Shown here: positions 87 to 57,860 of the stretch, piece by piece
How the letters are laid out: every line of letters starts with the position of its first letter
Numbering within the stretch: position 1 is the stretch's first letter
NCBI GenBank assembly: GCA_035221665.1
Contig: CM069155.1
Coordinates: 34,906,001-34,970,000, forward strand
Length of the DNA stretch: 64,000 nucleotides
Source of the DNA: Okamejei kenojei
Taxonomy: Eukaryota
Direction: 5' to 3'
Translations under genes and position numbers: made by a program
Notes under the pieces: generated by a model
The model's database searches: none
What the model saw: only the letters and a program-made list of their open reading frames with translations
Told to the model about the DNA's origin: nothing

Positions 87-294
87 TTCATCAACAAACT
101 GATGGAAGTAGTACCTATGTCAGTATCATCAGAGAGTGACCTTGCATTACCAGGTGACATCAAAGCTATGCAGAGGCACATGTTTGTCATCCAGTTTGCC
201 AGATTGTTAGGTCTTCATGAGGCCTTGGACCAGGAACAGAAACTCAGTCTTGTCGAGGAGCTGATGCAGAGATACAAACATGCCCTGGAGTTTG
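87..294 (+). CDS. NAA25: NAA25 internal coding exon (first in window; gene begins upstream)
   Basis: ctgcag|TTC ... TTTG|gtgagc. Encodes FINKLMEVVP...LALPGDIKAMQRH...LMQRYKHALEFG, matching recalled vertebrate NAA25 (FINQLLGVVP...LMLRYQHGLEFG). Confidence 0.93.
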
Positions 295-1207
295 GTGAGC
301 CCACTTTTTAAATTCAGTTTATGTTTGGTCAGCATATTCTATTGCCTGAAGTTATCTCCAATATGCATATTTGAAAGATTATATTTACACATTTTTTAAA
401 TTGGAAGTCTGTATTTGATGTCAAATTAGAATCGCTGCTAAAATTTAACTCTCTAAAACTTTGCATTATATAACACTGGAATATTCTGATGTTTAAGTTT
501 TTTTGTTCATGTGATTTCTTGAACTAATGCGAACTGTTGAGAACTATATTGTGCACTCTGTACCTTCTCTTTGATTTGTTCTGTGATTTGTACATGAGTT
601 AATTGTATTTATGTATAAGTGATCTGTTGGGATAGCAGGTGATACAGGTTTTTACTGTACCTCAGCGCAGGTGACAATATAAACAAACAAATAAATAAAC
701 AAGGTGAAGTACTGCATTAGGTTGGATGCAGTTTGAAGTGTCAGTTCAGAGTTCAAAGTACTACAGTAACTGAGTGTGTCAGGCATCATCTTTGGAGAAC
801 ATGAAGAGGGGACGTTTTGGGTTGGGACCCTTCTTCAGACTGAAGTGCCAGTTGTCCAGTTTTAGTGGTTGAAAAGCTATTTCATCAGGTATGACCGGTT
901 GAATGGACTAGTACATTCAGTGAACCTGTTGACTGTGCAACGGCACTACTCAAAACACAGATCAAAATACAATTTTTACGAAACTAACGGGAGAGCTGTG
1001 TAACTTGTACAGCAACTTAATGACCAATGCCATTGGTCTTATGTTACCTCGACAGAAAATTTTAAGCATTTTGTTAATCGGCATTGAGCCAACAATTGTG
1101 GTAATTCCTGGTTGCGCCAGTCTCACTATTAACTACGCTGCCTTGCAACAAACTACCTTCAAATCCCCACGTATGGAAAAGCCAAAAAGCTACAGATTTG
1201 GAAAATA

Positions 1208-1209
<2 letters not shown>

Positions 1210-1240
<31 letters not shown>

Positions 1241-2188
1241 TACCAAAACGGTACACGATAGCACTACAATTTTTGGCCCACCTTACTATTGTCCTGCGAT
1301 GTCAATGAAACACATTTTGTTCAGATTGATGGTATATTTTACAAGTTATTGACATTTAAAAGTTAAATTTAATTAAAACAGTGCCCCCACTTGGCAGCCG
1401 TGCCTGCGCAGTTGGGGGAGCCCCGTTAGCCCCTTGCGTGTGCAGTGGGCCCGGTATTCGAGCTGCGGTGGGTCCGGGGACGGGGAGAGGCCGTGCCGAG
1501 GACCTGGGGCTGGGTCTGAGGGCGGCGGCGCTGCAGCTCCGGGCCCGCGGGGAAGGAGAGGAGCGAGACCCAGGGCAAGGTCTAGGGTCGGTGATGGTTT
1601 GCATCGAGATTCTGGGGAGGTGAGGAGGGAGAGTGGGGGGGATTGAGGGAGAAGGAGGGGATAGGGAGGGAGAGGGAGGGCAACGTGGGGGAGGTGAGGA
1701 GGGAATGTGGGGGAGGAGGGGGGTGGGATGGGGGGGAGGTGAGGAGTGGGGTTGGAGGGAAATGAGGGGGATAGGGAGGAGAGAATGGTTATGGGGGGAG
1801 GGAGTGACTGAGGGTAGGGTAAATGCGAGGGAGAGGGGAGGGGAGGAGGAGAGGGAAAAGAAGAGAGAGGGTAAAGAGAATGGGGAGGGAGTGCTTGGGG
1901 ATGAGGGGCAATGGAGAAGGAAACGGGTAGGACGAGGGATGGCGAGGTAATGTGGAGGGGTGAAGGGAGGAAGCAGAGGAGGGTTGGTGGAGGCTGGGGA
2001 GAGGGAGGATAATGGAGGCGGGGAATAGGGGATTGAAGAGGGAGTGTGAGATGCATTCACATTGATCTTATTTATTGCCATTTTAAACTTTAAAAACGTC
2101 AGCTGCGCCTGCTCAATTGGGGGCTATGGATGAGTGGTAGAATATTGCGTTGGGGGAACGTGGCCCAACGGGTCCCACTTGGCCTAGT
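1210..2188 (-). mobile_element. Possible Helitron/Helentron-type non-autonomous element with a purine-rich low-complexity core
   Basis: On - it begins ACTAGGCCAAGTGGGACCCGTTGGGCC, has internal repeats of GTGCCTGCGCAGTTGGGGG-like units and ends in (TG)n(TA)n. Class inferred from architecture only. Confidence 0.35.
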
Positions 2189-2395
2189 ATCCTTCTAAAC
2201 CTCTCCTATCGATGTACTTGTCCAAGTGTCTTTTAGTAATGCCTGCCTCAACTACCACCTCCAGTAATTTCAACGCAGAGAGAAACCGGAGCTAACATTT
2301 CAGTTTGATTTGACCTGCTGCGTATTTCTGGCATTCTCTCGTATCAATGGGGTTTATTTAGTTTTTTATATTTTACGGCCTGTTCTGTTTAATAG

Positions 2396-2485
2396 GAAAG
2401 TCGTGCTTAAAAACGGAATTGCAGTTCTCTGATAATTATTGTCTCTTCGCTGTGCACCTTCTTCTTGACATCTGGAGACAATCAG
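2396..2485 (+). CDS. NAA25: NAA25 coding exon
   Basis: aatag|GAAAG ... ATCAG|gtcagt. (G)KSCLKTELQFSDNYCLFAVHLLLDIWRQS(G); phase 1-1, in frame with neighbours; absent from the ORF track. Confidence 0.93.
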
Positions 2486-2579
2486 GTCAGTGATTTTCTT
2501 CTCAGTTCAACCTGTAGCCTTGTCAGCTGAAAATGCTATTATATTCTGTGGTGAAAAAAATCAGCTCAAAGGTTATTTT

Positions 2580-2900
2580 ATTGGTCACATACACCAATTG
2601 GTGTAGTGAAATGCTTCTTGCCAATGCAGCACATAAATAAAAAAGAATACAGACATAACAATAATAAAGAGATTTTAAACATATAAAACATCCCCCCACA
2701 ATGATTCCCATTATGAGGGAAGGCACAATGTCCATTCCCCATCCCATGTCCACCCATAGTCGGGCCTATTGAGGCTTCAGCCGTCGCCTCCACAGAGGCC
2801 CGATGTTCCAGGCCGTTCTCGCCGGGTGATGGCGCTCCGGCATCGGGGGGAATCCTCTCAGCGGCTTGGGACACCTGGAACGGCCGCTTCCTTACCGGAG
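2580..2900. repeat. Unclassified dispersed repeat (second copy at about 22480-22715)
   Basis: Both copies share GTCAC.TACACCAATTGGTGTAGTGAAAT ... CACCCATAGTCGGGCCTATTGAGG ... GCCCGATGTTCCAGGCCGTT. Confidence 0.7.
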
Positions 2901-3912
2901 TCCGGACTGTATTTCAGACTTGTTTAATAGTGCCACCTATTAGTAATCGTACTGTTTTTCTTAATTATAAGTAAACTCAAATTTAGTATTTTCTAAGCTC
3001 TCTTGAAAAGGTAACATTAACACAGTTGTAGATTTTATCGTGAGGTTGTGGGATTATGCTGCAGATTTCAACAATGGTGCATTTAACTTGTTTATCAACA
3101 CCGAGGGCCATAGAAAATTCCCAAGTTCATCATCCTCATTGACTTCTTAATTTCTATTATACTTGTGTGGGAGGAACACAAATTTAGGCCTGCAGCCTTA
3201 TCACGTATTCCATAACCCTGAGTTGGAAAAGAAGGAATTTTAATTTGAGTGATGTAAAGAAATGTAGCAGGTGCATTTATATTTTTCTCTTTACCTTTTC
3301 CCAGACAGATCAGCTCTGATTTAGCAATCTTTAATTTCCCTCTCAAATGGTGCCAAAAATAGTTGTCAGCTGGAACCCTATCACAGACATTCCCTTTGTT
3401 ATCACTACCCTTTCTCCATTAACGTAAAAGGGATTTCAGAGGTTCAGTTAGTGGACTATTTATTGGTTTCTGACAAAAAAATTGTCCAAACCAAAGCCAT
3501 GGACCTTCATCTATTATGGACGTATATAATTTTGGTCTTTGAACCTCTGAATTTATTTACCCATTAATCCACATGCAATTTTGAGACCTTGATTTATGTA
3601 CGAGTAGCTTTTTATTTCTAAATTTCCAGTCTCTCGGAATTCAAGGCAAATCAGTTAAAGAAACCAACATCTGTTCTCGGCTACAATTAATATTTTGAAG
3701 GGAAGTTGGAGTAGGATTATTTTCTTTTGTTTTGGAGATAACATTGGAAAAGGTTTAAAAAGGCAAGAAGGAGAATGATCTGCAATGGTTTCAGTAATTC
3801 ACCTGATGAAATGGGTACAATGCTTTAGTGGTTGATTGTAACGCATCTGATGTTGACACTGGATCCATGAATAGATTCTGCTTCACCCCCTTGTGTCCTG
3901 ATGTTCCCACAG

Positions 3913-4093
3913 GTGAGGAGGGACCATTGTGGCAGTCTCTGGCCCTACTGGAGGAGACTCTCTCCAACAGCCCCTCTAGTGCTCAGTTCAAGTTGCTGCT
4001 CATTCGAATCTACTGTCTTCTGGGAGCTTTTGAGCCAGTCGTAGACTTGTACACCAGCCTTGATGCCAAGCATGTGCAACATGATACAATTGG
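3913..4093 (+). CDS. NAA25: NAA25 coding exon
   Basis: cccacag|GT ... ATTGG|gtgggt. EEGPLWQSLALLEETLSNSPSSAQFKLLLIRIYCLLGAFEPVVDLYTSLDAKHVQHDTIG. Confidence 0.95.
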
Positions 4094-5221
4094 GTGGGTA
4101 TTTATTTAGATTGATTGTTGGTGGGTAAATGTCAACCCAATAAGAACCTTTGACCAGACTAACCATGAAGAATGCAGCCATTCATTGCAACTAGCTATTA
4201 TGTGCAGTTGCATTTCCAAAGAAAACACAAAGAATAATAATATTTAACTTTAATCGTTTTCAATTTTCCACATAACCAATATTACATAATGCTTGGAATT
4301 TCAGAAATGTTGTCTAAGTCAATGTTATCTGTCCGATGGCATGAATTGCGGTATACATTTGTTTGATAGTGCTTTATTGTCGCATGTGCAAAACACAGTG
4401 AAGTAATTTTCCGAGTCACTGGATTTGGCACCATTTCCAAAGTCCGATCTGCACGCTAGGTCTCTTGGAGTGACACCCGATCCAGGCTAGCCCCTGGATT
4501 GTTCAGCGTACTGGCGTAACTCTTCTCACCCGCCACCTTTGTGCCCCGGGGGCGCCTCCTGCAGCGACCTTGAGGACACAGAAGGCAAGACTTCCTACTG
4601 GCCTTGATCTTCGAGATCATTGTTGCCAGCTGTCTCCTCTTTGGTACTTCGGTCTTCGGGGCAGGTTCCTGGTTCTGGTTCTGAGACGGGAGAGCCAGGC
4701 CATTCTCGACAACCCGAAACTCTTTCTGACAATAGAAAAATTGTGTGGAATAGTGACTGTGTGGAATCTGGCACTTTTAGGATTTTGGTTTTAGGCTAGC
4801 AGGTTTTCGAGGCAATCGGATGTTGTTCTAACGCCCGGTTAGCCAGATGCTGAACCATTGGCATTTCGGAACAGTTGGATCACAGATTATTGGAGAATTT
4901 TACAGTGTACTCAATGGGTACTTCTGAGCTCGGGCATTTAATACATGGAATGTGATTTTAGACAGAGTGGCTAATTTAGATCAATAATGATGAGTGTTTA
5001 TGCTGTGTGGTTAGATTTCCATCAGAGCTTTGGCAAAACAAGAGGCAATAATTAGATCAAGCAGGTTCGAGTCTATACATTAGTTTCAGATGTAAAAATA
5101 ACTATACGCCTTTCAGGTTACCTGAAGGGCAAAAGTTATCTTCTGCGCACATTGCAGATGACATTTGATATTGTAATATTTTTCCTCAGTGTTTGTGATT
5201 GACATTATATTTAACTGGCAG

Positions 5222-5321
5222 GTATTTGCTGACTCGATACGCTGAGCCATTGGGCCACCTTGCTGCTGCTTCCCAAGCGTGTAACTTCACACTCAGGTTT
5301 TTCCACTCCAACCAGAAAGAT
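5222..5321 (+). CDS. NAA25: NAA25 coding exon
   Basis: ggcag|G ... GAT|gtaagt. YLLTRYAEPLGHLAAASQACNFTLRFFHSNQKD. Confidence 0.95.
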
Positions 5322-7147
5322 GTAAGTGTGCCATGAATTGTGAGCATATTGAATAGAAAGAGGACACTGTACACCCTGGCAATTAATAGTTCTCTTGTTC
5401 TTACCCTAATTTTCCTCAATAAGAGCGCATGTAACAATACAGTTTGCAGTAAAGTCAAGGCTATTTGTAAAAACAAAAGACGGAAAGTGTTGGAGTAACT
5501 CGGTGGGTCGAGCAGTTTCTCTGGAGAACATAGCTAGGTGACGAGTCGGGATCCTTTTTCAGACTCTATGCAGCTTATTCATGTTCTCCAGAGATGCTAC
5601 CTGACCTGTTGAGTTATTCGAGCATTTTGTCTTTTTGTGTAAACCAGCATCTGCAGTTCCATGTTTGTACTATTTGGTTGTATGTTGTCTCTGGGAATGA
5701 ATTTAAATTGAATTTAAAATGTTCTCCTCATGCCATGTATCCTTCTGTAAACTCTGATTATTGATCGCTTACGGAAAGGTGCCAGATCAGCCACACGGGT
5801 GCACTACTATAATATATCTGCCCCTGGGTGACCTACTACATTATAAAACAATAATTATGCAACCATTATATTATTCCTTTTTTAACTTCGCTGAATTGCA
5901 TTTAGGTTTTTGGACATACACTTCACTCCCCAAGAGGTGTTGTTGGTTTATGTTGCACACCAAACTGTTCCTGCTATAATTGTCATATTATCCAAACAGT
6001 GCAGCATGAAGTATTTGAGATGCTCTGATAATTTAATGCACCTTGCAAGTTTCAGATGCAGTCATGAAATGTTCTCCGTGTCAGATTCGCTTTCCACAGA
6101 CGATAAGTTCTGCTGAAATTCATGGACTCCAACGCCTTTTGAAACCTTCCCAGTAACTTTATTGTTTATTGTTCTTATATCTTTTATTTGCGATGAGATT
6201 ATTTTGCGAGTACATGATTTATGATAGGACCATAGGATAGGTTGATATGCTGCTTTTATTCGAGCAGAGACGAAGACTCCAAAGATGTTCAGGTTTGTAG
6301 GTTAATTGGCTTTGGTATAAATGTAAAAATTGTCCCTAGTTTAGGATAGCGTTGATTTGTGGGGATTGCTGGCTGGTACAGACTCGGTGGGCCAAAGGGC
6401 CTGTATCTCTAAACTAATCAGAGCATACCAATCTTCCACACTTTTGGGGTTGCCAAAGCTGCATCTTGGTTTGGAGCAGAGGTTTACAGCACCACAACCA
6501 CAACATTGTTGTATCAGCCATTTTTTGCTGCCATGTGGAGAAAACTGAGTTGGTTGAAGGCCAGAACAGGTGAAGAAATGGGCTTCAGTAGAAAGCTGAT
6601 GTAATTATGTGTTTGCATATCTGGCTGAAGTTAGTTGCAAATACCTTTGTACTCTCACATTGGTTTCTGATGATATTGCACATTATCTATTGTGCTGCTG
6701 CTGCACAATTCTCCTGCTGCTGCCACCAACCTCATAAGTGGAGAAACAAGGAACTACAGTTGTTGGTTTACAAACAAAACACAAATTGCTGGAGTAACTA
6801 AGCAGGACAGGCAGCATCTCTGGAGAGAAGAAATGGGTGATGTTTCGGGTCTAGACCCTTCTTCAGAAACGTCACCCATTCCTTCTCTCCAGAGATGCTG
6901 CTGTTCCGTTGAATTACTCCAGCATTTTGTGTCTATCTATGGACAGTTGACATTTTGGGTCAGGATCCAGCTTCAGACACAAGCCTAAAGAAGAATCCTG
7001 ACTTGAAACCACACTCCGGGGATGCGACCTGACCTGCTGAGTTTCTCCAGCACTTTGAACCTCTTGTTTTGAGACAATGATTGTGTTCAAGAACAGTCCT
7101 AGCTAACATGATGTATGTACCGTACAATAGGTATTATCTCCCAAATA

Positions 7148-7540
7148 TAGACACAGAAAGTGGAGTAACTCAGCGGGTCAGGCAGCATCAAGAGAGAAGG
7201 AATGGGTGACGTTTCGGGTCGAGACCCTTCTTCAGACTGGTTAGGAATAAGGGAAATGAGAGATATAGACGGTGATGTGGAGAGATAATGAACAATGAAT
7301 GAAAGATAGGCAAAAAAATAATGATGATAAAGGAAACAGGCCTTTGTTAGCTGTTTGTTGGGTGAAAATGAGAAGCTAGTGTGACTTGGGTGGGGGAGGG
7401 ATAGAGAGAGAGAGAGAGGGAATGCCGGGGCTACCTGAAGTGAGAGAAATCAAGATCATACCACTGGGCTGTAAGCTGAGCAAGCAAAATATGAGATGCT
7501 GTTCCTCCAATTTGCGTTCAGCCTCACTCTGACAATGCCA
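7148..7540 (-). mobile_element. Penelope-like 3' fragment with an intact hammerhead-like core (7208-7235)
   Basis: End of the GIY-YIG ORF near 7435-7535, then a 3' UTR reading CTGAAGAAGGGTCTCGACCCGAAACGTC on -. Confidence 0.75.
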
Positions 7541-7904
7541 GCTCCATTGGGTATTATGTCCCTGCAGATTATGTGATGGTTACTCCTGCTATACTCTAAT
7601 GAAAAATGCATCTTGGAAAATTGAGATTGGAAAGGAAAAGGTGGTTACCTCATGTTGATTCTCTGCATACCAGCCTCCGTCTCTGGTTCTTCATTGGTTG
7701 CTCAGCTCTGTTATTACTGATGCTACTGAGCCATTATGTAATGGATACTGAACTCTTCCCCCGAGAGTATGTTCAGTGCTTGTGTCAATTGTGTTGCGTT
7801 TCCATCATAATGAACTTTGCAAATCCATTCCGTTTTTGGACATAATTCAATAATTCATCAGCCGCAGGAGAAAGATTGCACAATCGGCTGTATGTTTCCT
7901 TGGC

Positions 7905-8205
7905 TTAGATTTAGAGATACAATGTGGAATCAGACCCTTAGGCCCACTGAGCCTCACCGACCAACGACCCCAGCAAACCAATATTATTCTACGCACACCA
8001 GGGACAATTTACAATTTTACCAAGCTAATTAACCTGCAAACCTACAGATCTACATGTCTATGGAGTGTGGGAGGAAACCGGAGCTCCCGGAGAAAACCCA
8101 CGCAGGTCATGGGGAGAACGTACAAACTCCATACAGACAGCACCCACGGTCTGGATGGAACCCGGGTCCCTGGTGCTGTAAGGCAGCAACTCTACCACTG
8201 CGCCA
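7905..8205 (-). mobile_element. V-SINE (HE1-like)
   Basis: Reverse complement of the same consensus. Confidence 0.8.
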
Positions 8206-9231
8206 GTTACAATCTAAAGTTGATATTGATTAATCCTTCAGCCACTGCCTCCTGAGTGTTTTTGCTGTAGCTCCATTGGTGTGTTAATGCCACCCAGATC
8301 AGAAAGTACCCAGGGAAAGTGATGGGGCAGTCAGGAATATTGGCTGTATGATTTTGGGTATGTTTATGTTAGTTGTTGTTTGATTTCTCAATGTGCCAAC
8401 ACTTCTTATTTTGGCACATCTCCCAATATTAGCAAGGGGGACTTTGCAAAGTTCATTGGACTTGGGTCATGGCCTTTGTTATGTCTGGTGTTCATGTTAA
8501 TACGGGGTAACCTATCAATTTTTTGGTGTCGCTTTGGGCCATTTCAGAGGGCGGTTTAGAGTAAATTACATTACTGCAGAATCATACATAGCCCAGACCT
8601 GATTAAGAGAGAAGATTTATTTCTCTACGCAACATTAATGAACAAATTAGATGTTTTGAACCACTATGTCATTATTATTCCAGCCTTTGGTCCTGTATTC
8701 AGGGATTCTAGAATTCATTATGTTGGAGAATAAAATGCTTCATTATCCAGCTTGAGCTGTATATGCTCCTTCTATAGATCGGAAATAGGTTTTGTTCCCT
8801 CAGGCTTCAAGATGTTCTACAATTGAGGTTACTGTTGCTGATGCCAGTAGTATAATTGTGTGAATAATATATCAGAGTTGGTTTGAGTTAGTGAAATAAA
8901 AACAAATGACTAACAGGCCAGACAATCTCTGCAGAGAGCATAAAACGGTTAACGTTTCAGATCCATGATATTTTATTAGACATAGGATTGGGGTTAATTG
9001 TGACTTCACCCCAATAGTTTAAAAGTCTATTATTCTCTTGTGTGAAAAATGGCTTTTTGAATATTTTGGGAACTGGTTTTGGAGTTTCTGCAATTGTGAT
9101 CTCGCAAGAGTTGGTGTTTTCAGGAGGAAAGATGAGGAAATATGTGTAGGAAGGAACTGCAGATGCTGGTTTATACTGAAGATAGATAAAAGGTGCTGGA
9201 GTGACTCAGTGGGTTGGGCAGTATCCTACTG

Positions 9232-9540
9232 GATGTCCAGAACCAGGGGCCACAGTTTAAGACTAAGTGGTAGGACATTCAGAATGGAGATGAGTAAAAA
9301 CTTTTTCACCCAGAGAGTTGTGAATCTGTGGAATTCTCTGCCTCAGAAGGCAGTGGAGGCCAATTCTCTGGATGCTTTCAAGAGAGAGTTAGATAGAGCT
9401 CTTAAAAATACAGAGTCAAGGGATATGGGGAGAAAGCAGGAAAGGGGTACTGATTGTGGATGATCAGCCATGATCACAGTGAATGGCGGTGCTGGCTCGA
9501 AGGGCCTAATGGCCTGCTCCTGCACCTATTGTCTATTGGA
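9232..9540 (+). mobile_element. CR1/HER1 LINE 3' end
   Basis: SRTRGHSL...FFTQRVVNLWNSLPQKAVEA, plus tail GGCTCGAAGGGCC...CTCCTGCACCTATTGTCTATTG. Confidence 0.85.
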
Positions 9541-9652
9541 TGCTCGCCATTAAATAGCTTCACAAGAGATTTGTGAAATAGCTTGCTTGCAGGGGTGTTG
9601 CTTGCAGTAAGAACAGTTTTATTTGACAATGCTGGTTCACTTCATTTTACAG

Positions 9653-9804
9653 ACCTCTGAATACATAATCCAGGCGTATAAATATGGTGCTTTCGAGAAG
9701 ATCCCAGAATTCATTGCCTTTCGGAACAGGCTGAATAACTCTCTGCATTTTGCACAAGTCCGTATTGAACGTATGCTGTTAGACCTCTTCCTCGAAGCAA
9801 ACGT
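9653..9804 (+). CDS. NAA25: NAA25 coding exon
   Basis: ttttacag|ACC ... AACGT|gtacgt. TSEYIIQAYKYGAFEKIPEFIAFRNRLNNSLHFAQVRIERMLLDLFLEAN. Confidence 0.95.
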
Positions 9805-11121
9805 GTACGTATTGCTATACTTTACATCACTTTACCAGGGGAGCAGAGCTTATTGCTAATTGGGTCACTTGCTTAACGATAACTGCTTGACAGTGCTTGA
9901 ATCTATGTCAAATAGTTAAAGATTATATATGAATCAAAAAATCTGCTGATGCTGGAAATGTGAAAACAAAACTGAAAATGTTGGAAATGCTCAACTGATC
10001 AGGCAACATTGCTTGAAAGGTTATGTCCTCATTCCCATGTTCACAGAAGTGTGTTCAATTTTACATTTACATGTAAAATTTCCTATTGTATGAAAACCTT
10101 TAGTAACATTTCCTAGGCAATATGTTTTGATTTGACTGCTTACTGAAGTATTAAGTTAGAGTTTCTTGACATGAGAACAATATTGTCGCAGGTACAGCAA
10201 TTTGTTTCGAAAATTTTTCATTTGGATCGACAATGAATCATTTTGGCAAAAGAATTTAAAACAAACTATTAATTAAAAATTCCTTCTTCCTTTTTGTTCT
10301 GGTCAGAAATGCACAAGGAATCTGTTTCTTCAACTCTGCAGAATATTAGAAATTCTTGGCAAAGAAAGCCATTTGCCCATTATTACTGTGACAGGCAGAA
10401 GTGCTATTTAGACGGTTGGAAGAAATCCCAGATCCTCAATGCACAAGAGACTGCAGATGCTGAACTTTTGCACACAAAAGAAAACTGGAGGTGGAATTCC
10501 GTGTACCAGGGAAAATAAAAATGAAAATTTCACTCGAAACATCATCAGTCCATTTTCCTTCACTGATACTACCTGGTCTGCTGAGTTCCTCCAGCATTTT
10601 GTTAAATTTGCCCAGATCTTGGACCATTGATCTGAAGATTACTCATGTTATTCAAATATTTTGTTTATAGAAATGAAAGCTTACCATTTCTGTAATGAGT
10701 TCCAGACCTACCTTTTTGTGAATAGAAAGGTTTTCTGTAACTTTCCTCTAACCTTTTCTCAATCTACCTTGAATTAATGTCCCCTGCTTTAAGGGGACGT
10801 TAATATCCTTCTACTCGCCTTGTCCAAGCCTCTAATACCGCAATAAATAGCGATGTGAATGAGGTCTACAATTAAGTTTGTTGTCTACTGTTACGAAGGT
10901 GGAGGTTTTTGTTCCATTTTCAGTTTTAAATGTCTCTCTACGTGTTGTTCTGTGTCGCAGTGAAGTAACTGGGGGAAAAAAAAAAAATTGGTACAGGCAT
11001 ATTGCTGCAGCTTTGTGCCTTCAGCCATGCACAATTATGACAATGTGGAAAAATTCCCTTTGTTAAAATCACACTTGTGTCAACATGTATATTTAATACC
11101 CTTTCTCTTTGTCGTTTGTAG

Positions 11122-11247
11122 AACGCAAAGCCTAGAAGAGAGTATAAAATCCATGGGTTTATGTCCAGACGAAGATGATATACCATGGGACAATCTCCGA
11201 GATAACCGGGATCTAACTGTTCTCTTTTGCTGGGATCCAAAGGGCAG
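11122..11247 (+). CDS. NAA25: NAA25 coding exon
   Basis: tttgtag|A ... GGCAG|gtatat. TQSLEESIKSMGLCPDEDDIPWDNLRDNRDLTVLFCWDPKG. Confidence 0.93.
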
Positions 11248-11324
11248 GTATATGAAGTTCATGAAGATTTCTCTTTTTTATATCTCCTCCTTATTCTCCC
11301 TCTCTCTCTCTCTCGGGGGAAGTT

Positions 11325-11705
11325 GGATTGTTTTCTCTATAACACTGGAGGTTGAGGGGTGACCTGATGGAAGTGTATAAAATTATGAGAGGCATAGACA
11401 GGGGAGACAATCAGAACCTTTTTGGAAATGTTAAAGGCTGGAAGGTGAAATGGGCAAAGTTTAAAGGGGATGTGCGGGTCACGTTTTTTTTTTTTTTTCA
11501 GAGTGGTGGATGCTGGGAATGTGCTGCCGGGGGCGGTGGTGGAGGCAGATACGATATTGGCATTTAAGAGATTTAAGTGGATATGCAGGAAATGGATGGG
11601 TGTGCATCATATACAGGCAGATGAGATTAGTTTAGCTTGGTATGTTGGGCACAGACATATTGGGCTGAAGGAGCTGTTTCTGTACTCTACTTTTCTATGT
11701 TCTAT
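11325..11705 (+). mobile_element. CR1 LINE 3' fragment
   Basis: RGDLMEVYKIMRGIDR remnant and CR1 tail. Confidence 0.75.
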
Positions 11706-12137
11706 TTCCTGTGAATGATTTGGTGCCTTAGTTGTACTCTTTAACCTTCTTTCACCTGCCTCTGCTGACCTCTGGATGCTTATCGGGGTGCATCTAAATT
11801 TTATGTCATCATTTTATGCATTACAGCGCTTTTAGATGGAGCTGTTCTACTCATGCTGGTGATGAGCATCCTTTCTTAATAAATTTGCATAATTACATTG
11901 CTGGTCTTGTTGAGTGTGATCCAAAATTGCACATTAATCATTGTGGGATGTAACTAATCTAAAATACTGCAGGCACTGGAATTCTGAAATAAACTAGAAG
12001 GCAGGACAAACAATACACAGCAGGTCAAGTCAGCATTTGTGGCAAAAGTAAGAGTTAATTGCTCTTAATTAAGTTAATTAATGATCTAATTGATTAATGA
12101 TCTAATGAACGCTGTTAATTAATGATCTAATGATCTA

Positions 12138-12945
12138 ATGAACGCTGTTAAGTGTGAAGTGCTACATCTTGGCAGGACAAATCAAAATAGGACGTACATG
12201 GTAAATGGTAGGGAATTGAGGAATGCTGTGGAACAGAGGGATCTAGGAATAACTGTGCTTAGTTCCCTGAAGGTGGAATCGCATGTAGATAGGGTGGTAA
12301 AGAAAGCCTTTGGTGTGCTGGCCTTTATAAATCAGAGCATTGAATATAGGAGTAGGGAAGTAATGTTAAAATTGTACAAGGCATTGGTAAGACCAATTCT
12401 GGAGTATGGTGTACAATTTTGGTCGCCTAGTTATAGGAAGGATGTCAACAAAACAGAGAGAGTACAGAGGAGATTTACTAGAATGTTGCCAGGGTTCCAG
12501 CAACTATGTTACAGAGAAAGGTTGAACAAGTTAGGTCTTTATTCTTTGGAGCGCAGAAGGTTAAGGGGGGTCTTGATTGAGGTCTTTAAAATGATGAAAG
12601 GGATAGACAGAGTTGACGTGGATAAGTTTTTCCCATTGAGGGTAGGGAAGATTCAAACAAGAGGGCATGACATGAGAATTAAGGGACAGAAGTTTAGGGG
12701 TAACGTGAGGGGGAACTTCTTTACTCAGAGGGTGGTGGCTGTGTGGAATGAGCTTCCAGCAGAAGTGGTGGAGGCAGGATCTATTTTAACATTTAAGAGT
12801 AAAGTGGATAGGTATATGGACGTGAAGGGAATGGAGGGGTGTGGTCTGAGTGCAGGTAGATGGGTCTAGGGGAAAACAAATGGTCGGCACGGACTGGAAG
12901 GGCCGAGAGGGCCTGTTTCCGTGCTGTAATTGTTATATGGTTTAT
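12138..12945 (+). mobile_element. CR1/HER1-type LINE 3' fragment with an open RT C-terminal ORF (243 aa)
   Basis: KCEVLHLG...ERDLG...LYKALVRPILEY...WSP...ERVQRRFTRM...LERRRLRG...FFTQRVV.WN.LP, plus a CR1 3' tail. Confidence 0.9.
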
Positions 12946-13359
12946 ATGGATATCTTTCAAGATCTCAATTAATAGCAATGTAAGATTATTGACATGGAAA
13001 GACATAAATTGCTCTTCGGGTTTGGCAAGACTGCAACTTGGATAATGAGGAAAATGTAATTGTGCATTCTGATATTTAATAGAGTCAGGTGTGTTTAATT
13101 GTTAGTGCAGGAAGGAACTGCAGATGCTGGTTTAAACCGAAGATGGGCACAAAGTCGCAGTAACACAGCATCTCTGGATAGAAGGAATGCGATGCGTTTC
13201 GTGTCCAGACACTTCTTCAGATTGTCTATCTGTTTAATTGTTAAATGTGCTGATAACAAAACGATGAAATTCTTACTTTTGCAAATAATTGAGTGAAAAC
13301 GATGTCACGTGTCCTTCCAAATCAAGTTTTAATGTCACTTTTCTCCCCAATTACGAAAG

Positions 13360-13603
13360 TGAATTGACAGAAGGGCAAAGGGAGACGTCGATGAAAGAAG
13401 AGCGGACGTGGCTTCAGATTCGTTCGTTGACGCTACGCTTAGTCTGTGCACTCGCTACCATTAGCCACACAGTTGAGCTGAAGAATTCCAACCGAACAAC
13501 AGAGAATGGTGTCGCTTCTAAAATTGACACACTACGTTATTTAATTCAACAGCTTGAATGTATCGTGCAGACGGAGAAGAAAAAGGACAAACAGGTTGTT
13601 CAG
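13360..13603 (+). CDS. NAA25: NAA25 coding exon
   Basis: acgaaag|T ... GTTCAG|gtaaat. ELTEGQRETSMKEERTWLQIRSLTLRLV...ENGVASKIDTLRYLIQQLE...KQVVQ; phase matches the upstream exon. Confidence 0.88.
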
Positions 13604-14238
13604 GTAAATTTCTTCGAAAGAAATGTAATTTGGTTCTAAGTGAAATGTACGTAGCTAAGTTACTGCAATAAGTTGCCAGGTAATGGCAATACTTGGCACT
13701 TAAAACTAAATTTTCGATGATCTCAAAACCAAATTCTCACTATTCTTTCTCCCCACCAAACCTTAACACACAGTTTCCCCAGGCACAATTGACAAAGAGC
13801 ACAATACAGTGATTTGCGGAGGAGGAGGATCACAGAATCAATCCCTTGTATGTTGAAATTAAGAATAAAATATTTGAGGTTAACCACCTTTGCCAATTTG
13901 CACAAAAATTGGTGGCGTTTCTTTTGATATCTGATCTGATCTGATATGTGTTAAATTATACTTGGGTGGATAAGAGTGTCCAGCAATTAAATAAATTACC
14001 AACTAAAAGAATACCAGAAGAAGTGGCACATTGGAATGCATTGTTCTTTATTAACAGAAATGAGAAGAGAGAAGCTGTTTCTACATATCAAAGTGTTTTG
14101 GTTGGACCATAGTTTGTGACTAATATTTAAAAACTGGTCTTCAAAAGCGTCGCCAGGGGGACATTTTCTGTTAATCTCTCTCTGATAGTACCAGAAACTG
14201 CATGCAAACCTGAGTTCCACATTCTGTTCTGTTCACAG

Positions 14239-19320: not shown

Positions 19321-21897
19321 ATATTTTTTTTTAGTATAGTACAGCAACTTTATTCTCTCCATGTGTGCTCTATTAGCTTACAGAAATAGAAATTCAATTC
19401 AATTCCCTCTTTCAAAGGTAGACAAAAATGCTGGAGAAACTCAGCGGGTGCAGCAGCATCTATGGAGCGAAGGAAATAGGCAACGTTTCGGGCAGAAACC
19501 CTAAAGGTTGACTATTTCCTTCGCTCCATAGATGCTGCTGCACCCACTGAGTTTCTCTAGCACTTTTGTCTACCTTCGATTTTCCAGCATCTGCAGTTCC
19601 TTCCTAAACACTCCCTCTCTTTCAAGTTTAGAAAGTACATCTGCAGTCAACACTCTTGATTGTGATGCCTCTAAATCCACTAGAGGGCAGCTGTTACCTG
19701 ATTTATTCACTAAAAGACACATTAGTGCGGGAGGGAGAGATATGGGTGCAAAGGGAGAAGGGGAGGGGACAGAAGGGAGATGGAACTAAAAGACACTAAA
19801 AGACACATTTTGATGGCTGCGCAAGATTAGCAAATGTTGCTTTCATTTTTTTCCTGAAGCTGCATTCACATCAATGTGAATCATATGAGTGCTTACAAAC
19901 TGATAATGGTGGATCAAATTAACAAAGAATTCCTGTGTAAGCATCGTGGCGTAGCAGTTGGTGCTGCTGCCTCTATACTCCAGCGTCCTGGTTTGAATTT
20001 GTTCAGGGGGACTGTCAGTAGGGAGATAGCCTGTTCTCCCTGTGATTGCTTGGTTTCCCTCCGGTGCTCCAGTTTCCTCCTAATGCCAAGGATGTACCAT
20101 ATTTGGTGAATTGCCCACTCTTGGTTAGTACGGGTGTTAGCGGTTATGGGGACAAGGCAGGAGAATGGGGTTAGGAGGGAGAGATAGATCAGCCATGGTT
20201 GAATGGCGGAGCAGACCTGATGGACCGAATGGCCTGATTCTGCTCCTTTCTCGTTTATGAGCTTATGATCTATAAATTGTCCTTACTGTGTTTGGATGAC
20301 AAAGTGAGGAGTAGATGAAGATGCAAGAGGAAAAATGGGATTGGTGTAGATGGATCTTGATGGCCGTGATGGGCCAAAGATCCCCTTTCCATCCTGTGTG
20401 ATTCTATGACGCATGTTCCAACTCTAAGGCCTTCAGGAAACTTAGCTGGCATTTGGCAATTCCTTCTGGTAAGCTTATCTTTTTTTTCTTACCGGTGAAG
20501 CTTTGATTGCTTTGTCACTTTTTAAACACTTTCATACTTTGCTTGTATGTAACACAGGTCAAAATTACATCTCAAATAAATCACTGTATGAGAAGAACCA
20601 AGATATGAGCGGTTTTAAGTGAAGCCTAAAATTGCAGATTGAGAAGGTGCTGGCACGTCCCCTGGGTTTATCTGCATGACTACAAAGAACCCTTGGTGTT
20701 GGAAATCTAAAATAAAAGTAGTGGGAGACATATCCTTTGTGCATTTTGATGCAGGGTTCACGCCTGAAATATTAGTGTCTTTCCTTTGGTGTGCATTGAT
20801 CCCAGGAATCAGTCTCGTCCTCTGACAAATGAGATGTCAAAGCAGGCTCAGTGTGCTTTTGTCTGTGAAAGAGCTAACAATAGCAGGAGTGAATTCCTGC
20901 TATTTTTATCCCGCAAACAATAGTTAATCTGGTCGTTATTATGTTGCCACAAATGAAGGTTTGCAGCCAGTTGTCAAATCCTGAAAAAAACATGTACTTT
21001 TCTCTTTATAAATGTGATGCATTTATTCTCTCTTCAGCATTATTACATATTTTTAAAGTTCCACTGTTGCTGAATAGTCCTTTGACCAGTTTCTTATTGC
21101 ACCATCAGTTAGCCTAAAAATCTGCTCTATTTTTTGTATTGGCTCTTTGTTGTTGAATATTAAATGTGTGTCATGTTGCGTTTGCAATCTTCGATGAGTG
21201 TATCCACATTTAGCTGTCACTTAAATTCGTAACTAAACCAATTGGAAACTAGGGAAGGGAGAAAGGATACTCGGAAGCGGTCACAAAGTGCTGGAGTAAC
21301 TCAGTGGGACAGGCACCATCCCTGGAGAACATGAATAGGTGATGCTTTGGATTTGGACCCGTTCCTCAGTTTGATTGTAGAGGGGTGTGGAAGAAAATTG
21401 TGAAAGCAGTAGAAGGATGTAGATGGAGGAGGATGAGGACACATCAACACTATTCAGAGGAGGTCAAAGCATATCATACCAGACATTGTGTAGGAAGGAA
21501 CTGCAGATGCTGGTTTAAACTGAAGATAGACACAAAAAGCTGGAGTAACAGCGGGACATGCAGAAGGAATGGGTGCCGTTTCGGGTCGAGAAGAGCCAAA
21601 ACGTCACCCATTCCTTCTCTCCAGAGATGCTGCCTGCCCCACTGAGTTACTCCAGCTTTTTTTCCTACCAGAGATTGGTGTCTTGCAATGAGGTGCCATA
21701 GGTTCTACTGTGATGATGTCTGTGGACATACTTATTCTAATATCTATTGGAGAATTACATATTTTGGAAAGAGTCTGGCTGTTTAGGATTGGAGAATGGA
21801 AATTTTATAATTCAAAGTATATCATTTTTAGTTCATGTTGCAAAAAATGATGCCTTCATTGTCCATTATCTAACAATATGTTCGCGTCTTTCCGCAG

Positions 21898-30716: not shown

Positions 30717-30939
30717 GTATAGACACAAAATGCTGGAGCAACTCATCAGGCCAGGCAGCATCTGGATAGAAGGAATGGGTGATGTTTCGGGTCGAGACGC
30801 TTCTTCAGACTGAAGAAGGGTCTCGACCCAAAAGGTCACCCATTCCTTCTATCCAGAGATGCTACCTGTCCCGCTGAGTTACTCCAGCATTTTGTGTCTA
30901 TCTTTGGTGTAGTCCACCTTATGCAGTTCCTCACTGCAC
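30717..30939. mobile_element. Palindromic Penelope-derived mini-element
   Basis: About 90-bp arms centred on TTCTTCAG-A-CTGAAGAA (30809); flanking direct repeat ATTGATAATGT at 30706-30716 and 30940-30950. Confidence 0.8.
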
Positions 30940-36804: not shown

Positions 36805-37440
36805 CAGTACCCTCCATAATGTTTGGGATAAAGACCCATCATTTATTTATTTGCCTCTGTACTCCACAATTTGAGATTTGTAATAGAAAAAAATCACATG
36901 TGGTTAACGTGCACATAGACAGATTTTAATAAAGGCCATTTTTATACATTTTGGTTTCACCATGTAGAAAATACAGGAATGTCCCTCCATTTCAGGGCAC
37001 CATAATGTTTGGGACACAGCAATGTCATGTAAATGAAAGTGGTCATGTTTAGTATTCTGTTGTACATCCTTTGCCTGCAATGACCACTTGAAGTCTGCAA
37101 TTCAAAGACATCACCAGTTGCCCGGTGTCTTCTCTGGTTATACTCTGCCGGGCCTGTACTACAGCCGTCTTTCGCTTATGCCTGTTTTGGGAACTAGTCC
37201 CCTTCAGTTTTCTCTTCAGCATATAAAAGGCATGCTCAATTGTGTTCAGATTGGGTGATTGATTTGGCCACTCAAGAATTGACCATTTTTTAGCTTTGAA
37301 AAACCCCTTTGTTGCTCTTGCAGTCTGCTTGTAATCATTGTCTTGCAGTAGAATGAACCTCCAGCCAATGAGTTTTGATGCATTTGTTTGAACTTGAGCA
37401 GATAGGATGTGTCTATACACTTCAGAATTCATTATGCTAT
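36805..37440 (-). mobile_element. Truncated Tc1 copy (one TIR), inserted at TA in a CR1 3' fragment
   Basis: TA|CAGTACCCTCCATAATGTTTGG; ORF 37049-37483 contains LQDND...WPNQSPNLNTIEH. Confidence 0.85.
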
Positions 37441-38165
37441 ATTCCTTGATTCCGTTCGCCCGGAGAGTATATCTAACTCTCATCTAACTAGTACTTTTGT
37501 TATGTATGGTTGTATCATAACATTGCTGACAAAAGTTAGCCTTTTAAGTTTTCCCCAAAATCTGAGTCCTTGTTATTTGTTGAATTCTGTCAGACGTTTA
37601 CTGTGTATATATCTTTATCTGTGTGTTTTTTTGTAACCTTAGCCAATATATCGTTGACAATCCTCCTTCCCTTTCCACATGTCCTTGGTGCGTGTCTTTA
37701 TTGATATGTTGAATTCCTGTTTCTTCCGAGGGTACAGTAGACATTCTGTGCCTAACATGAAATGGCAACAGACTGTCCTGGACTTGAAACAAAATGGTTG
37801 AGACAGCAACAGGCAAGATAAAATGAGGAAGTCATGGTGCAGTTTTTTGGACTTGGCTTCGGATGCATTTTGAGTATTGTGTGCAGTTCTGATCGCCCCA
37901 TTACAAGAATAACATGGAGGCTTTGGAAAAGGGTACAGAGGTTTACCAGAATTATGTTGGGAATAGAGGGTATTTAGTTACAGGGAGAGGTTGAACAGGC
38001 TTGGATTGGTTTCTCTGGAACTCTGAACGTTGTGGGGAAACCTGAGAGAAGTGTATACATTTTTTTTAAAGAGAGGTATGGATAGGACAGACGGTCCGAA
38101 TTCCTGCAGCAGTAAGAATTTCACTCTGGGTAATGCATTCAAGTACCAAGCTGAATAATGCACAA

Positions 38166-39022
38166 AGTACTCGAGTAAATTAGCGGGTCAGGCACCATCT
38201 TTGGAGAGAGACAAAAATGCTGGAGAAACTCAGCGGGTGCGGCAGCATCTATGGAGCGAAGGAAATAGGCAACGCTTCAGGCCGAAACCCTTCTTCAGAC
38301 TGATGTGAGGGTGGGGGGAATAAGAAAGGAAAAGGAGGAGCCAGAGGGAGAGCTAGGAAGGGGAGGAGAAAGTAAGGACTACCTGAAATTAAAGAAGTCA
38401 ATGTTCATACTGCTGGGGTACAAACTGCCCAAGCGAAATATGAGATGTTGCGCCTCCAATTTCCGGTGGTCCTCACTCTGACCATGGAGGAGGCCCAGGA
38501 CAGAAAGTTCGGATACGGAATGGGAGGGAGAGTTGAAGTGCTGAGCCACCGGGAGATTAGGTTGGTTATTGCGAACCGAGCGGAGGTGTTCGGCGAAACG
38601 ATCGCCAAGCCTACGCTTGGTCGCACCGATGTAGATCAGCTGACATCTAGAGCAGTGGATGCAATAGATGAGGTTGGAGGAGGTGCAGGTGAACCTCTGC
38701 CGCACCTGGAAACACGGCTTGGGTCCTTGATTGGAGTCAAGGGGGGAGGTAAAGTGACAAGTGTAGCATTTCTTGCGGTTGCAAGGGAAAGTGCCCGGCG
38801 AGGGGGTAGTTTGGGTGGGAAGGGACGAATGGACCAGGGAGTATGGAGGGAGCGGTGTCTGCGGAAAGCGGACGGGGAGGAGATGGGAAGATGTGGCAAG
38901 TGGTTCCGCCCAAAACGTCACCCATCCTTTATCTCCCGAGATGCTGCCTGACCTGCTGAGTTACTCCAGCACTTTGTGACTATCTTCACTATAAACCATG
39001 ATCTGCAGTTCCTTCCTACACA
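38166..39022 (-). mobile_element. 5'-truncated Penelope-like retroelement (GIY-YIG endonuclease, Neptune-like) with an inverted terminal segment
   Basis: ORF 38379-38921(-): PCNRKKCYTC linker, NLIYCIHCSRCQLIYIGATKRRL..RFAEH..HF..H..E..I..L..MN. The 3' UTR carries a CTGAAGA...GAA motif, an inverted copy of the 3' end lies at about 38905-39022, and the flanks repeat CTGAATAATGCACAA (38151-38165 and 39023-39037). Confidence 0.88.
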
Positions 39023-40686: not shown

Positions 40687-41189
40687 TCACAAATCCTCTC
40701 TTGGTGAGTTTGGTATCTGGAACGAGCTCAGGATATTCTGCCGCTTCTGGAACTCCATCTTCTTCGCCGAACTCATCTTGCTCTCTTCCAGCAGTTTGCC
40801 GATCCGCGCGATCTCCGAGCTAACAAACGGGTCGCCTTGCGCCAGCATCTTGCTCATGATTTTGTGGTACTGCTCCGCCAGTTTCTGATCTGACTCCGGC
40901 AGCTTTTCCATCCTGTTCTTCGCCTTCCCCATGATCTTCTGCCGTTCTTCCACGCTTCTCGTGCTGCTAAAATCCTGGGCGAGGAAATCGAACGCCTCCA
41001 GGCAGCCGAGCATCCCGACCCACACACCTTTGGTCTTCAACCACTGCTGAATGGCTTCCTGTGTAACCTCTCCAGTAAACCGGGCCGGATTCTCCAAATC
41101 CCCATCAATGAACAGCAGGTAGACCGGAAAGTCGTCCTTTTCCACTTTATATTTCTCCCCAAGTTCTGAATTTTCCTTATCACCATAAT
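40687..41189 (-). CDS. ERP29: ERp29 exon 3 (end of thioredoxin-like domain plus helical D domain; ER retrieval signal REDL)
   Basis: Minus strand cacag|AT TAT GGT. DYGDKENSELGEKYKVEKDDFPVYLLF...GMLGCLEAFD...RQNILSSFQIPNSPREDL-TGA. Confidence 0.96.
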
Positions 41190-41437
41190 CTGTGTCAAGA
41201 CAAACATTATAAAGTAACTATAAATCTTGCACCTTCTATAATTAAATCAAAATCTCACAGCTTGGCCCTAGCCACATAATGTGTTCTACCTTCTCTCCCC
41301 CCCCCCCCCCCACTTGCACCATGTTCTCACCCTCCCCCATGTGAATATAACGTTTCACACACAACCTAGGCATTGAACAATCTCTAACTTTTTGTGACCA
41401 AAAGTTACCGATTGACTTCAAGAAATTTTCGTGCTAC

Positions 41438-41696
41438 TTTAGTTTAGAGATACAGCGCGAACCAGAAATCCCGTACACTAGTAGTATTATACACACTGGG
41501 GACGATTTACAATTTTTACCGAAGTCAATTAAACTACAAACCTGTACGTCTTCGGAGTGTGGGAGGACACCGGAGTACCGGGGAAAACCCACGCGGTCAC
41601 GGGGAGAACATACAAACAGCGCCTGCTGTCAGGATCGAACCCGGGGCTCTGGCGCTGTAAGGCAGCAGCTCTACCGCTGCGCCACCGTGCCGTCCC
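41438..41696 (-). mobile_element. V-SINE (further partial copies at about 44226-44445 -, 62929-63127 -, 57355-58655 + split)
   Basis: Reverse complement of the same consensus. Confidence 0.8.
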
Positions 41697-41934
41697 TACT
41701 TGTGGGTGAATAAATGATTATGTAAATTTGAGTCTTTAATTTTTTTAAATTTCCTTTTCTACTTTCAATTCCAAGGTAACGGTGTCATTGGCCATGCTTG
41801 TGGAGATTTGCCCAGAATTTATGTTCAGGACCTCTGCTGACTGACGCAGCTTTACTTGCTGAGTGTTCTGAAGAAAATTTAGTATGACTAAGTAAAAGTA
41901 CTGGAAATATCAATGGAACTACAGAAAATAAGCT

Positions 41935-42405
41935 GGAAAGGGTGCAGAAAAGATTTATGAGCATGTTGCCTAGACACGTGGAGCGGAGCTGTAAGGAGAG
42001 GTTAAGTAGGCTAGGACTTTATTCCTTGGAGATGAGGGGTGATCTTATAGAGGTGTGTAAGATCATGAGAGGAATAGATAAGGTAAATGGCCAGTCATTT
42101 ACCTGGAGTACAGGTATCAAGAACCAGAGGGTGCAGGTTTAAGGTGAGGGGGGGAAAGATTTAATATGAACCTTTGGGGCAGCTTTTTTACACATAGGGT
42201 GGCGGGTGTGTGGAATGTGCTGCCGGAGGAGGTAGTTGAGGCAGGTACTATCACAATGTTTAAGAAACATTTAGACAAGTACATGGATGGGATCCATCGG
42301 AGAGATATGGGTGGCAGGCAGGTGGAACTATTCTAGATGGTCCATCTTGGTCGGCATAGGCAAGTTGGGCCGAAGGGTCTTTCTCCACACTGTACGTCTC
42401 TATGA
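41935..42405 (+). mobile_element. CR1 LINE 3' fragment
   Basis: QKRF..MLP...ERLSRLGLYSLE..RGDLIEV.KIMRGID. Confidence 0.8.
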
Positions 42406-42883
42406 GGAAATGAACAACTCTACTCCAAGTGACAACTGAGGGTTTAAAGAAAAAACAAATGGCCACAAAGACATTTTGTCTACTGGTTTTCTTTTACAGA
42501 TATTCCAGAATTGGAAAGGGAGCAGGGATAGTCCCACTGTTCAAGAAAGAAAGGAAGTCAAACAAAAGTAGGTCAAAACTAAATCAGTAGTAAATTAAAT
42601 AAATCAATTTAGGGAAGGATATTTAAGGAGAGCATTATAAAAGAGACATGATTACAGAATGCTTCTATTTTTTTTCACTTTGTAACTGATGTAAAGGTGG
42701 AAGAGCTAGGGAGAACAATGCAATTGGATTTAGACTCTTATGGATTTGGTTTCGTTAACAGACAATGTCAAAATAAACATTGCATTTTCAAGTTAGTAAG
42801 CAAATTGTGGTTTTGTTGTGGTTTTGTATTTATTACAAAGGATCGGAGTGTATGATTTAAAGTAAATCTCACTGCTGCTACAA

Positions 42884-43695: not shown

Positions 43696-43889
43696 TACAT
43701 TAAGCATGTTAAGTCTATGCAAGAGCTTCCAAGTACAATGGGCTGCAACCGTGTGCTGCTGATATCCCACGTTGTTGTACAAGGACCAAGCTACGCAAAG
43801 TGGTTGAGTAGAGGACACTGGATGGGTGACAGAGCAGACCATATTTTTACATAATTTGTTTCAACTTGGACAAGCAATACAGTTCCTAC

Positions 43890-44028
43890 CTGATATTCCC
43901 ACTTCAGCCACCAAGAGTTCCTTGCTGGAAGCAGAGTTTTCCACCAATTTCTTAAACTCATCTTGCTTCTCTCCATACGGATACTGCGTGTCAATCTTTA
44001 CCAGGGCATACTTCAGTTTGGGGATTAC
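43890..44028 (-). CDS. ERP29: ERp29 exon 2 (139 nt)
   Basis: Minus strand ctgcag|GTA ... TCAG|gtagga. [46 protein letters not shown]. Confidence 0.96.
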
Positions 44029-57684: not shown

Positions 57685-57860
57685 GGAGACCTCTCACGAC
57701 CACAGGAGACCTCTCACGACCACAGGAGACCTCTCACGACCACAGGAGACCTCTCACGACCACAGGAGACCTCTCACGACCACAGGAGACCTCTCACGAG
57801 CACAGGAGACCTCTCACGACCACAGGAGACCTCTCACGACCACAGGAGACCTCTCACGAC
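57685..57860 (+). repeat. 20-bp minisatellite GGAGACCTCTCACGACCACA, about 8.8 copies
   Basis: Near-perfect head-to-tail units (one C>G variant) with no spacers. Confidence 0.95.

Follow-up and report, generated by a model that had tools for sequence, protein, structure and literature searches.

A minimal hammerhead motif in the pseudo-LTR of an abundant Penelope-like element of the skate Okamejei kenojei, and the probable origin of most insertions from uncut RNA

Introduction

Minimal hammerheads have been described in the pseudo-LTRs (pLTRs) of metazoan Penelope-like elements (PLEs), fish Neptune elements among them (Cervera and de la Peña 2014, PMC4209133). As far as the available parts of that account go, the motif that we describe here from a skate shares with this class the core letters, an unpaired residue that separates position 9 from 10.1, the G10.1-C11.1 pair, a loopless palindromic helix 15.2-16.2, the location in the pLTR, and a pattern of mostly solitary dispersed copies with some opposite-strand pairs. 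Stem II has 4 bp in the skate core versus 7-8 bp in Schistosoma, whereas stem I has 2 bp, as in Drosophila virilis, instead of the usual 4-5 bp, and the skate has about 48,000 exact copies, where reported motif numbers are 4,000-9,000 in coelacanth and Xenopus. Names of sharks, skates, and rays are absent from two supplementary files of the same paper.

For a PLE of Anolis carolinensis, Poseidon PAc (Frangieh et al. 2024, PMC11167929), the available text reports that reverse transcription initiates internally at two sites, that the hammerhead is protein-assisted and dispensable for insertion, and that none of the reads ends at the cut. The skate element is alike in its hammerhead near the pLTR-ORF junction, in having a pair of 3′ end sites separated by 30-40 nt (tail) with no ends at the cut, and in the use of unprocessed RNA as template, which is likewise proposed for it below. 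It differs in that its ATG lies 162 nt after C3 and not inside stem II, and in its linker with a zinc motif, while its fixed 5′ edge at the core has no counterpart that we met in the available account of PAc. EN+ PLEs of the Neptune and Nematis clades (Craig et al. 2021, PMC8557442) are described with the same order of RT, CX2-5CxxC linker, and GIY-YIG endonuclease, and with the same partial tandems, inverted 5′-truncated copies, 30-40 bp tail, and pLTR hammerhead. Animal non-LTR retrozymes, as presented in the available parts of two reports (Cervera and de la Peña 2020, PMC7229834; Li et al. 2026, bioRxiv 10.64898/2026.07.22.740005), resemble the skate copies in their type I hammerhead, PLE pLTR ancestry, and large target-site duplications, but the skate copies lack tandem monomers, a canonical stem I of 6 bp, and unit ends at the cut.

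The kind of motif is already published, and the motif taken by itself is unsurprising. A literature search confined largely to open-access papers listed no account of such a family in cartilaginous fishes or of a fixed 5′ edge at the core. This genome offers both young near-intact elements and an estimated 600,000 stubs with sharply placed ends.

Sequences, numbering, and sampling

The window is the whole 64-kb stretch of contig CM069155.1 that was analysed. Positions relative to the hammerhead take C3 of the core as 0, which places the predicted cut between +27 and +28. The genome scanned (G000) comprises 2.76 Gb, and all genome-wide figures other than the count of the exact 28-mer are extrapolated from a sample of 160 stretches of 10 kb (1.6 Mb) at round coordinates on contigs C1-C29. 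The first 80 of these stretches supplied the ratio of stubs to ORF-bearing copies and part of the data on clusters of 3′ ends, palindromes, and 3′ UTR types.

Table 1. Coordinates of the features discussed (window positions unless a locus is named)
Feature	Position	Strand	Remarks
Minimal hammerhead core, 7.2-kb copy	7208-7235	-	C3 to A9, then an additional A; stem II of GGGU/ACCC and a loop of 4 nt; G12 to A15.1; palindromic ACGU; C17
pLTR remainder after the cut site	7150-7207	-	ends at about +88, the commonest 3′ end and likely reverse-transcription start
A-G-U directly 5′ of the core	7236-7238	-	5′ strand of the 2-bp stem I; within initiator-like YCAGTCT
Pyrimidine-rich 3′ UTR	7239-7431	-	
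Degraded final GIY-YIG endonuclease codons	7428-7537	-	5′ truncation point
Possible decayed target-site duplication	7125-7141	-	14 of 17 letters shared with 7545-7561; read by eye
NAA25 (NatB_MDM20) exons	87-299, 3909-4106, 9596-9799, near 11.1 and 13.4 kb	+	
ERP29 exons	41011-41211, 43891-44031	-	
Head-to-head palindrome of two stubs	30722-30898		meeting at the one base ahead of C3 (30809), with decay in both cores
5′-truncated PLE copy, sister subfamily	38211-38960	-	zinc linker and GIY-YIG, 3′ UTR, decayed core 38271-38298, tail
Inverted partial arm at 5′ end of the 38-kb copy	38909-38986	+	
Antisense open frame over endonuclease end	38376-38951	+	
Antisense open frame over endonuclease end	L051:6116-6880	-	
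Third descriptor-passing core	59078-59105	-	wobble pairs within stems II and III; stub whose start at -3 follows a G
Core with catalytic letters intact	60509-60536	+	G10.1-C11.1 closing pair of stem II is a G-U wobble

Results and discussion

A minimal hammerhead core in a 5′-truncated copy

An earlier note on this DNA, made from the sequence alone, had described intact hammerhead cores at 7208-7235(-) and 60509-60536(+), variants elsewhere, and a minimal hammerhead of the PLE kind with a questionable stem I. Read directly, the letters of the 7.2-kb core are exactly as described (Table 1). Both catalytic boxes (CUGANGA and GAAA...UH) are present, as is a helix II that has G10.1-C11.1 and a nucleotide separating 9 from 10.1, and helix III is a palindromic, loopless ACGU that permits a dimer. 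The extra A after A9, the 4-bp stem II, and the loopless helix III together uphold the identification as a minimal PLE hammerhead, with a predicted cut 3′ of position 7208 on the minus strand. Stem I, which the note had called weak, runs for 2 bp in register and then meets an A-C mismatch. The core at 60509-60536(+) can be called intact in its catalytic letters but not in stem II, where the closing pair has become a wobble. Variants placed near 30810, 46175, and 38272-38298(-) are all present, the last at 38271-38298(-), and count as decayed because of a G12-to-A change, a broken stem II pair, and an A15.1-to-G change, respectively.

Across the window, a 25-letter core pattern gave 11 matches at up to 3 mismatches versus none in 100 shuffles, and 15 cores were found at up to 7 mismatches. 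Three of the window cores, at 7235(-), 59105(-), and 60509(+), passed a minimal-hammerhead descriptor. The covariance-model search that the earlier note had proposed gave no support, with no hammerhead family at E ≤ 10 in an Rfam scan of the window.

The 7.2-kb copy spans approximately 7544 to 7142(-) and consists of the last endonuclease codons, the 3′ UTR, the core, and a tail to +88; over 7151-7431 it is 85% identical to the young family represented by locus L134. Its core lies antisense in an intron of NAA25, between the exons at 3909-4106 and 9596-9799, and the copy is therefore likely a silent passenger with an idle hammerhead. NAA25 (87-13640, +) and ERP29 (40687-44031, -) stand tail to tail. 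Around the cores at 59.1 and 60.5 kb, a search for a host gene among 64 plus-strand ORFs gave one weak Pfam match under the cut-off.

The parent Penelope-like element

The connection to a PLE, which the earlier note had drawn from a GIY-YIG ORF next to the 38-kb core, is confirmed: the ORF (38379-38960(-); Pfam E 0.0014, under the curated cut-off) is real, and related near-full-length elements carry the core in their pLTR. This ORF shares 79% identity with the endonuclease end of an RT-EN ORF of 974 aa at locus L051, one of 150 loci scored from 141,508 first-look candidates in a genome search with the 38-kb ORF. The L051 frame is open from stop to stop and matches RVT_1 (E 4e-6) and GIY-YIG (E 0.003), both slightly under the Pfam curated cut-offs, with an exact core about 350 nt downstream. 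At 10 of 24 further loci, a same-strand core lies 850-950 nt upstream of the 5′ part of the ORF, and nine of these continue into the ORF start: the endonuclease end and the stop are followed by the pyrimidine-rich 3′ UTR, then A-G-U, the core, some 135 nt, and the ATG at +162. This layout is the partial-tandem pLTR of EN+ PLEs. Both L051 and the window ORF at 38379-38960 have a CX4CX2C zinc linker between RT and EN, a signature that would mark the Neptune or Nematis clade, the assignment being taken from the linker motif and not from a tree. The choice between these two clades follows the vertebrate distribution given in the available part of a recent preprint (bioRxiv 10.64898/2026.07.22.740005).

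Two further features of these elements were observed. At 12 of the 20 ORF-bearing loci, an antisense open frame of 250-259 codons overlaps the endonuclease end (Table 1), and it may be no more than a shadow of codon use. At 60358-60591(+), the end of the element 5′ UTR and the first ORF codons are fused to the end of the 3′ UTR and the core, in an internally deleted unit that retains both splice-like sites; parts joined in this way were found at no locus of the 1.6-Mb sample.

Abundance and nature of the short copies

The family is as abundant as had been claimed, the exact 28-mer occurring 48,215 times in the genome (24,302 + 23,913) versus zero for a reversed control. The sample contains 30 exact copies per 1.6 Mb, or about 52,000 genome-wide, and therefore agrees with the genome count. 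It also contains 367 copies anchored downstream of the core (about 630,000 genome-wide) and 340 core matches, 65 of which have intact catalytic letters and stems II and III with wobbles allowed (about 110,000 genome-wide). Descriptor matches number 71 in the sample versus 1, 1, and 2 in three shuffles. The 37 motif types behind them, considered as a source of covariation from other hammerhead families, are all variants of a single family.

Most copies are short, and stubs are many times commoner than ORF-bearing copies. This excess could suggest a separate non-autonomous retrozyme or SINE family replicating through circular RNA, and PLE-derived tandem retrozymes are described for one chondrichthyan in the accessible part of the preprint cited above (bioRxiv 10.64898/2026.07.22.740005). 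Yet the stubs are identical letter for letter to the pLTR of ORF-bearing subfamilies, the 1.6-Mb sample holds no tandem arrays of intact cores (the nearest intact same-strand pairs are 453 and 957 nt apart), and copy ends do not fall at the cut site (3 of 367), all of which makes such a family extremely improbable. The first 80 stretches contained one 37-nt partial duplication among the sampled copies. We thus regard the stubs as products of the PLE itself.

Copies span the cut site and share a 5′ edge

The cut site is spanned by at least 8 nt in 313 of the 367 copies anchored downstream of the core, whereas three start at +28, no more than at adjacent positions. These three, considered as junctions restarting at the cut and set aside, all follow CAG, and two of them lie at inverted junctions. 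At the other end, 201 copies reach -1 or beyond, comprising 54 that run into the 3′ UTR, 53 that run into an inverted arm, and 94 that run into unique flank. Hence 147 of the 367 copies (94 unique flank and 53 inverted arm) stop at -3 to -1 with no element sequence upstream, a figure to be read with the upstream limit of the all-family alignment at -3, since 3′ UTR variants that went unrecognised may account for some of the "unique" flanks. In the young subfamily, for which an exact upstream reference was used, 26 of 59 copies stop at -7 to 0 (two of these being sister-subfamily copies with their own UTR), 10 extend further, and 23 stop at +1 to +36.

The letters at this edge are also distinctive. 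Of 16 copies, 9 have a G directly before A(-3), versus 25% expected (p = 0.008), and versus 6 of 41 internally truncated copies (p = 0.003). Because 23 further unique-flank copies carry C at -4, the edge is fuzzy and spans approximately -5 to -1. An extra G at the end of a full-length cDNA is expected from copying of the cap, and the YCAGTCT before the core fits the initiator consensus. The 5′ edge of the copies is thus likely the start of a capped RNA. Of 60 copies tested, 23 showed exact target-site duplications of 9-18 nt, in many cases accompanied by some additional letters on the 5′ side.

The A-G-U at 7236-7238(-), a frequent starting point of genomic copies, lies in a YCAGTCT that can also be read as a CAG|U acceptor. 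The edge might then be a 3′ splice site (pyrimidine tract, CAG|U), with splicing supplying another 5′ strand for stem I, as proposed for D. virilis Penelope, where the intron end is reported to map to the 5′ end of helix I (PMC4209133). In the skate, all observed 3′ UTR types finish with a pyrimidine tract plus YAG|U, and a donor-like AAG|GTATGC stands at the ORF start. However, stubs abut the target-site duplication directly or via a few extra, often G-rich letters with no common upstream exon, more copies reach -3 or -2 than end at -1, and no GT..AG joint into the site occurs among the 15 joints listed, of 73, from four contig sets, which are assembled from public runs whose RNA nature is a guess (one is probably DNA) and which are blind to ends, strand, and expression. 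On balance a splice-site edge appears unlikely, and we retain the capped start as the preferred reading.

In contigs of the same four runs, uncertain in kind, coverage of the pLTR is much deeper than that of the ORF. The donor-like site, strong and overlapping the ORF ATG (L134:761-770, +), has a further potential consequence: were it spliced to the acceptor-like site that follows, the entire ORF would be excised and hammerhead exons of 160 nt would remain in tandem. Splicing or back-splicing of such an exon was considered and set aside, with no such joint among the 15 listed from the four contig sets.

At the other end of the copies, 3′ ends cluster at +88 to +94 and at +120 to +130. Inverted arms are carried by 127 of the 367 sampled copies, which could yield double-stranded RNA, and several palindromes, including that at 30722-30898, are centred on base -1. 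Matches to plant miRNAs in Rfam at 19413-19581 proved to be a head-to-head pair of the core repeat that forms a long hairpin.

Conservation in subfamilies and decay of inserted copies

Conservation of the core relative to its flanks, on which the earlier note had made its reading depend, was compared across the 201 copies reaching -1. With a subfamily variant defined as a non-CpG column in which the second allele reaches at least 10%, variant columns number 0 of 17 in the catalytic letters and stem II versus 15 of 59 in the flank (p = 0.014); split by class, the counts are 0 of 10 catalytic and 0 of 7 stem II columns, and the catalytic letters alone do not differ significantly from the flank (p = 0.07). 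Subfamily changes inside the core lie in loop II, turn C17 into U, or preserve pairing. Covariation, the other pattern that the note had looked to, did not appear: no double-sided change was found in stems II or III among the sampled copies, where one-sided U-A to U-G changes alone occur (stem II in 15 of 201 copies, with stem I similarly changed in 52 of 201). A 2-bp extension of stem I past a 3x3 loop was left uncounted, as a single A-U to G-C change between two subfamilies and hence one event.

Inserted copies, by comparison, decay at CpG like neutral DNA, with G12 (in a CpG) altered in 49 of 196 (25%), a rate like that of other CpG sites (16-28%). Taken together, the invariant core columns and the CpG decay of copies suggest that the motif was likely kept by selection in master elements but not in copies. 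A lower per-copy decay of non-CpG catalytic letters (4.8% versus 6.9%) was set aside as evidence of selection because copies were picked by alignment through the core.

Conservation of this kind might also reflect an internal promoter or a protein-binding signal, with the 28 letters kept mainly for that role and the hammerhead likeness vestigial. The core directly follows the initiator-like site, the copies derive from uncut RNA, the predicted fold hides the core (see below), and D. virilis Penelope is reported to have an internal TATA-less promoter with an initiator and a downstream element (PMC2377424). Against a vestigial hammerhead, subfamily changes respect pairing, and the catalytic letters, the nucleotide after A9, G10.1-C11.1, and the palindromic helix III all match the PLE consensus as described (PMC4209133), while the Anolis PLE hammerhead is reported to cut in a C3/G8-dependent manner (PMC11167929). 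Since promoter and ribozyme roles are moreover not mutually exclusive, we consider it improbable that the signal is mainly a promoter, and favor selection on the ribozyme in master elements.

Predicted folding and the question of cleavage in introns

In predicted folds, the 4-bp stem II forms in an isolated 31-mer, whereas with at least 17 downstream bases the purine-rich core pairs with pyrimidines past the cut site. The core was hidden in this way in all four copies folded, with a stem II pair probability of at most 0.05, although the folds were no stabler than shuffles (z -0.18 to +0.75). Stem I had a predicted pair probability of 0.0, and a longer stem I was discarded as a candidate, the best upstream/downstream duplexes reaching -3.0 and -3.6 kcal/mol in the two intact copies. 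Helix III is predicted to form only between two molecules (ACGU duplex, -3.1 kcal/mol), and for the 7.2-kb copy, a dimer with stems II and III is predicted at -12.7 kcal/mol, far above the dimer minimum of -23.3 kcal/mol.

These results bear on the central proposal of the earlier note, that introns here may contain many dimer-dependent self-cleaving RNAs, which would make many intronic copies working ribozymes that cut host pre-mRNAs. The estimated 110,000 structurally intact cores and a helix III that is predicted to form between two copies are in its favor, and all six core-bearing copies up to 13.6 kb (838, 5565, 6866, 6976, 7.2 kb, and 13220) are antisense to NAA25, as expected if sense copies were avoided. 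The 7.2-kb copy is itself one of these antisense copies, however, and the NAA25 sample is small, with six copies of which two are adjacent, orientation being counted over the mapped NAA25 exons up to 13.6 kb. An antisense bias in introns is, furthermore, generic for retroelements. Among the 65 intact cores, an intact same-strand partner lies within 500 nt for 2, within 1 kb for 4, and within the 10-kb stretch for 14, so that cis dimers in host introns would be uncommon. Published minimal PLE hammerheads are described as weak even as dimers (PMC4209133). With the hidden core, the neutral decay at G12, and the rarity of starts at the cut, the proposal was not supported, and working intronic ribozymes appear very unlikely.

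Proposed model

We consider it probable that the motif is a minimal hammerhead in the pLTR of a Neptune-type PLE, that the 7.2-kb copy is 5′-truncated, antisense in an NAA25 intron, and likely silent, that insertions derive mostly from uncut RNA starting at about -3, and that the ribozyme is selected in master elements only. RNA polymerase II would start on the A that lies three bases ahead of C3, or close to it, and the element protein would begin reverse transcription internally, at +88 or +125, and copy the uncut RNA back to the cap. The outcome would be several hundred thousand stubs of 90-130 bp. Head-to-head palindromes may come from the pairing of two cDNA ends of this type: if both end at -3, they could anneal over five bases with one mismatch, giving a palindrome centred on -1. 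An alternative route to palindromes is self-priming on an antisense template, as outlined in the available part of another study (PMC3846280). In master elements, the ribozyme would cut slowly, as a dimer paired through the ACGU helix, and would probably need protein help, and cutting is likely no step in the making of most insertions.

A more far-reaching interpretation is possible, although we advance it tentatively. If the capped RNA starts three bases before the core, it would leave no room for a real stem I, the 5′ hammerhead would be held off by a competing hairpin, and the protein would copy the uncut 5′ end from +88 or +125. The stubs and hairpins would then constitute a genome-scale record of transcription start, reverse-transcription starts, and second-strand joining, and the hammerhead would act as a protein-gated switch, late or on tandem RNA, instead of a maturation step. 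The model predicts an RNA start at -3, reverse-transcription starts near +88 and +125, and no ends at +28, and confirmation would extend the single biochemical study of the Poseidon element to the Neptune type.

Other repeats in the window

The window also contains repeats of other kinds. Remnants of Tc1/mariner-like DDE transposases lie on the minus strand at 37049-37483 and 43012-43680 (DDE_3 matches) and at 46961-47302 (by likeness). Two open frames, at 12126-12869(+), for which Pfam gave no match, and at 51508-51924(-), resemble what we take to be the 3′ end of a CR1-type LINE ORF2. Finally, a minisatellite of roughly 57-bp units, with frames open on both strands, occupies 57650-57900.
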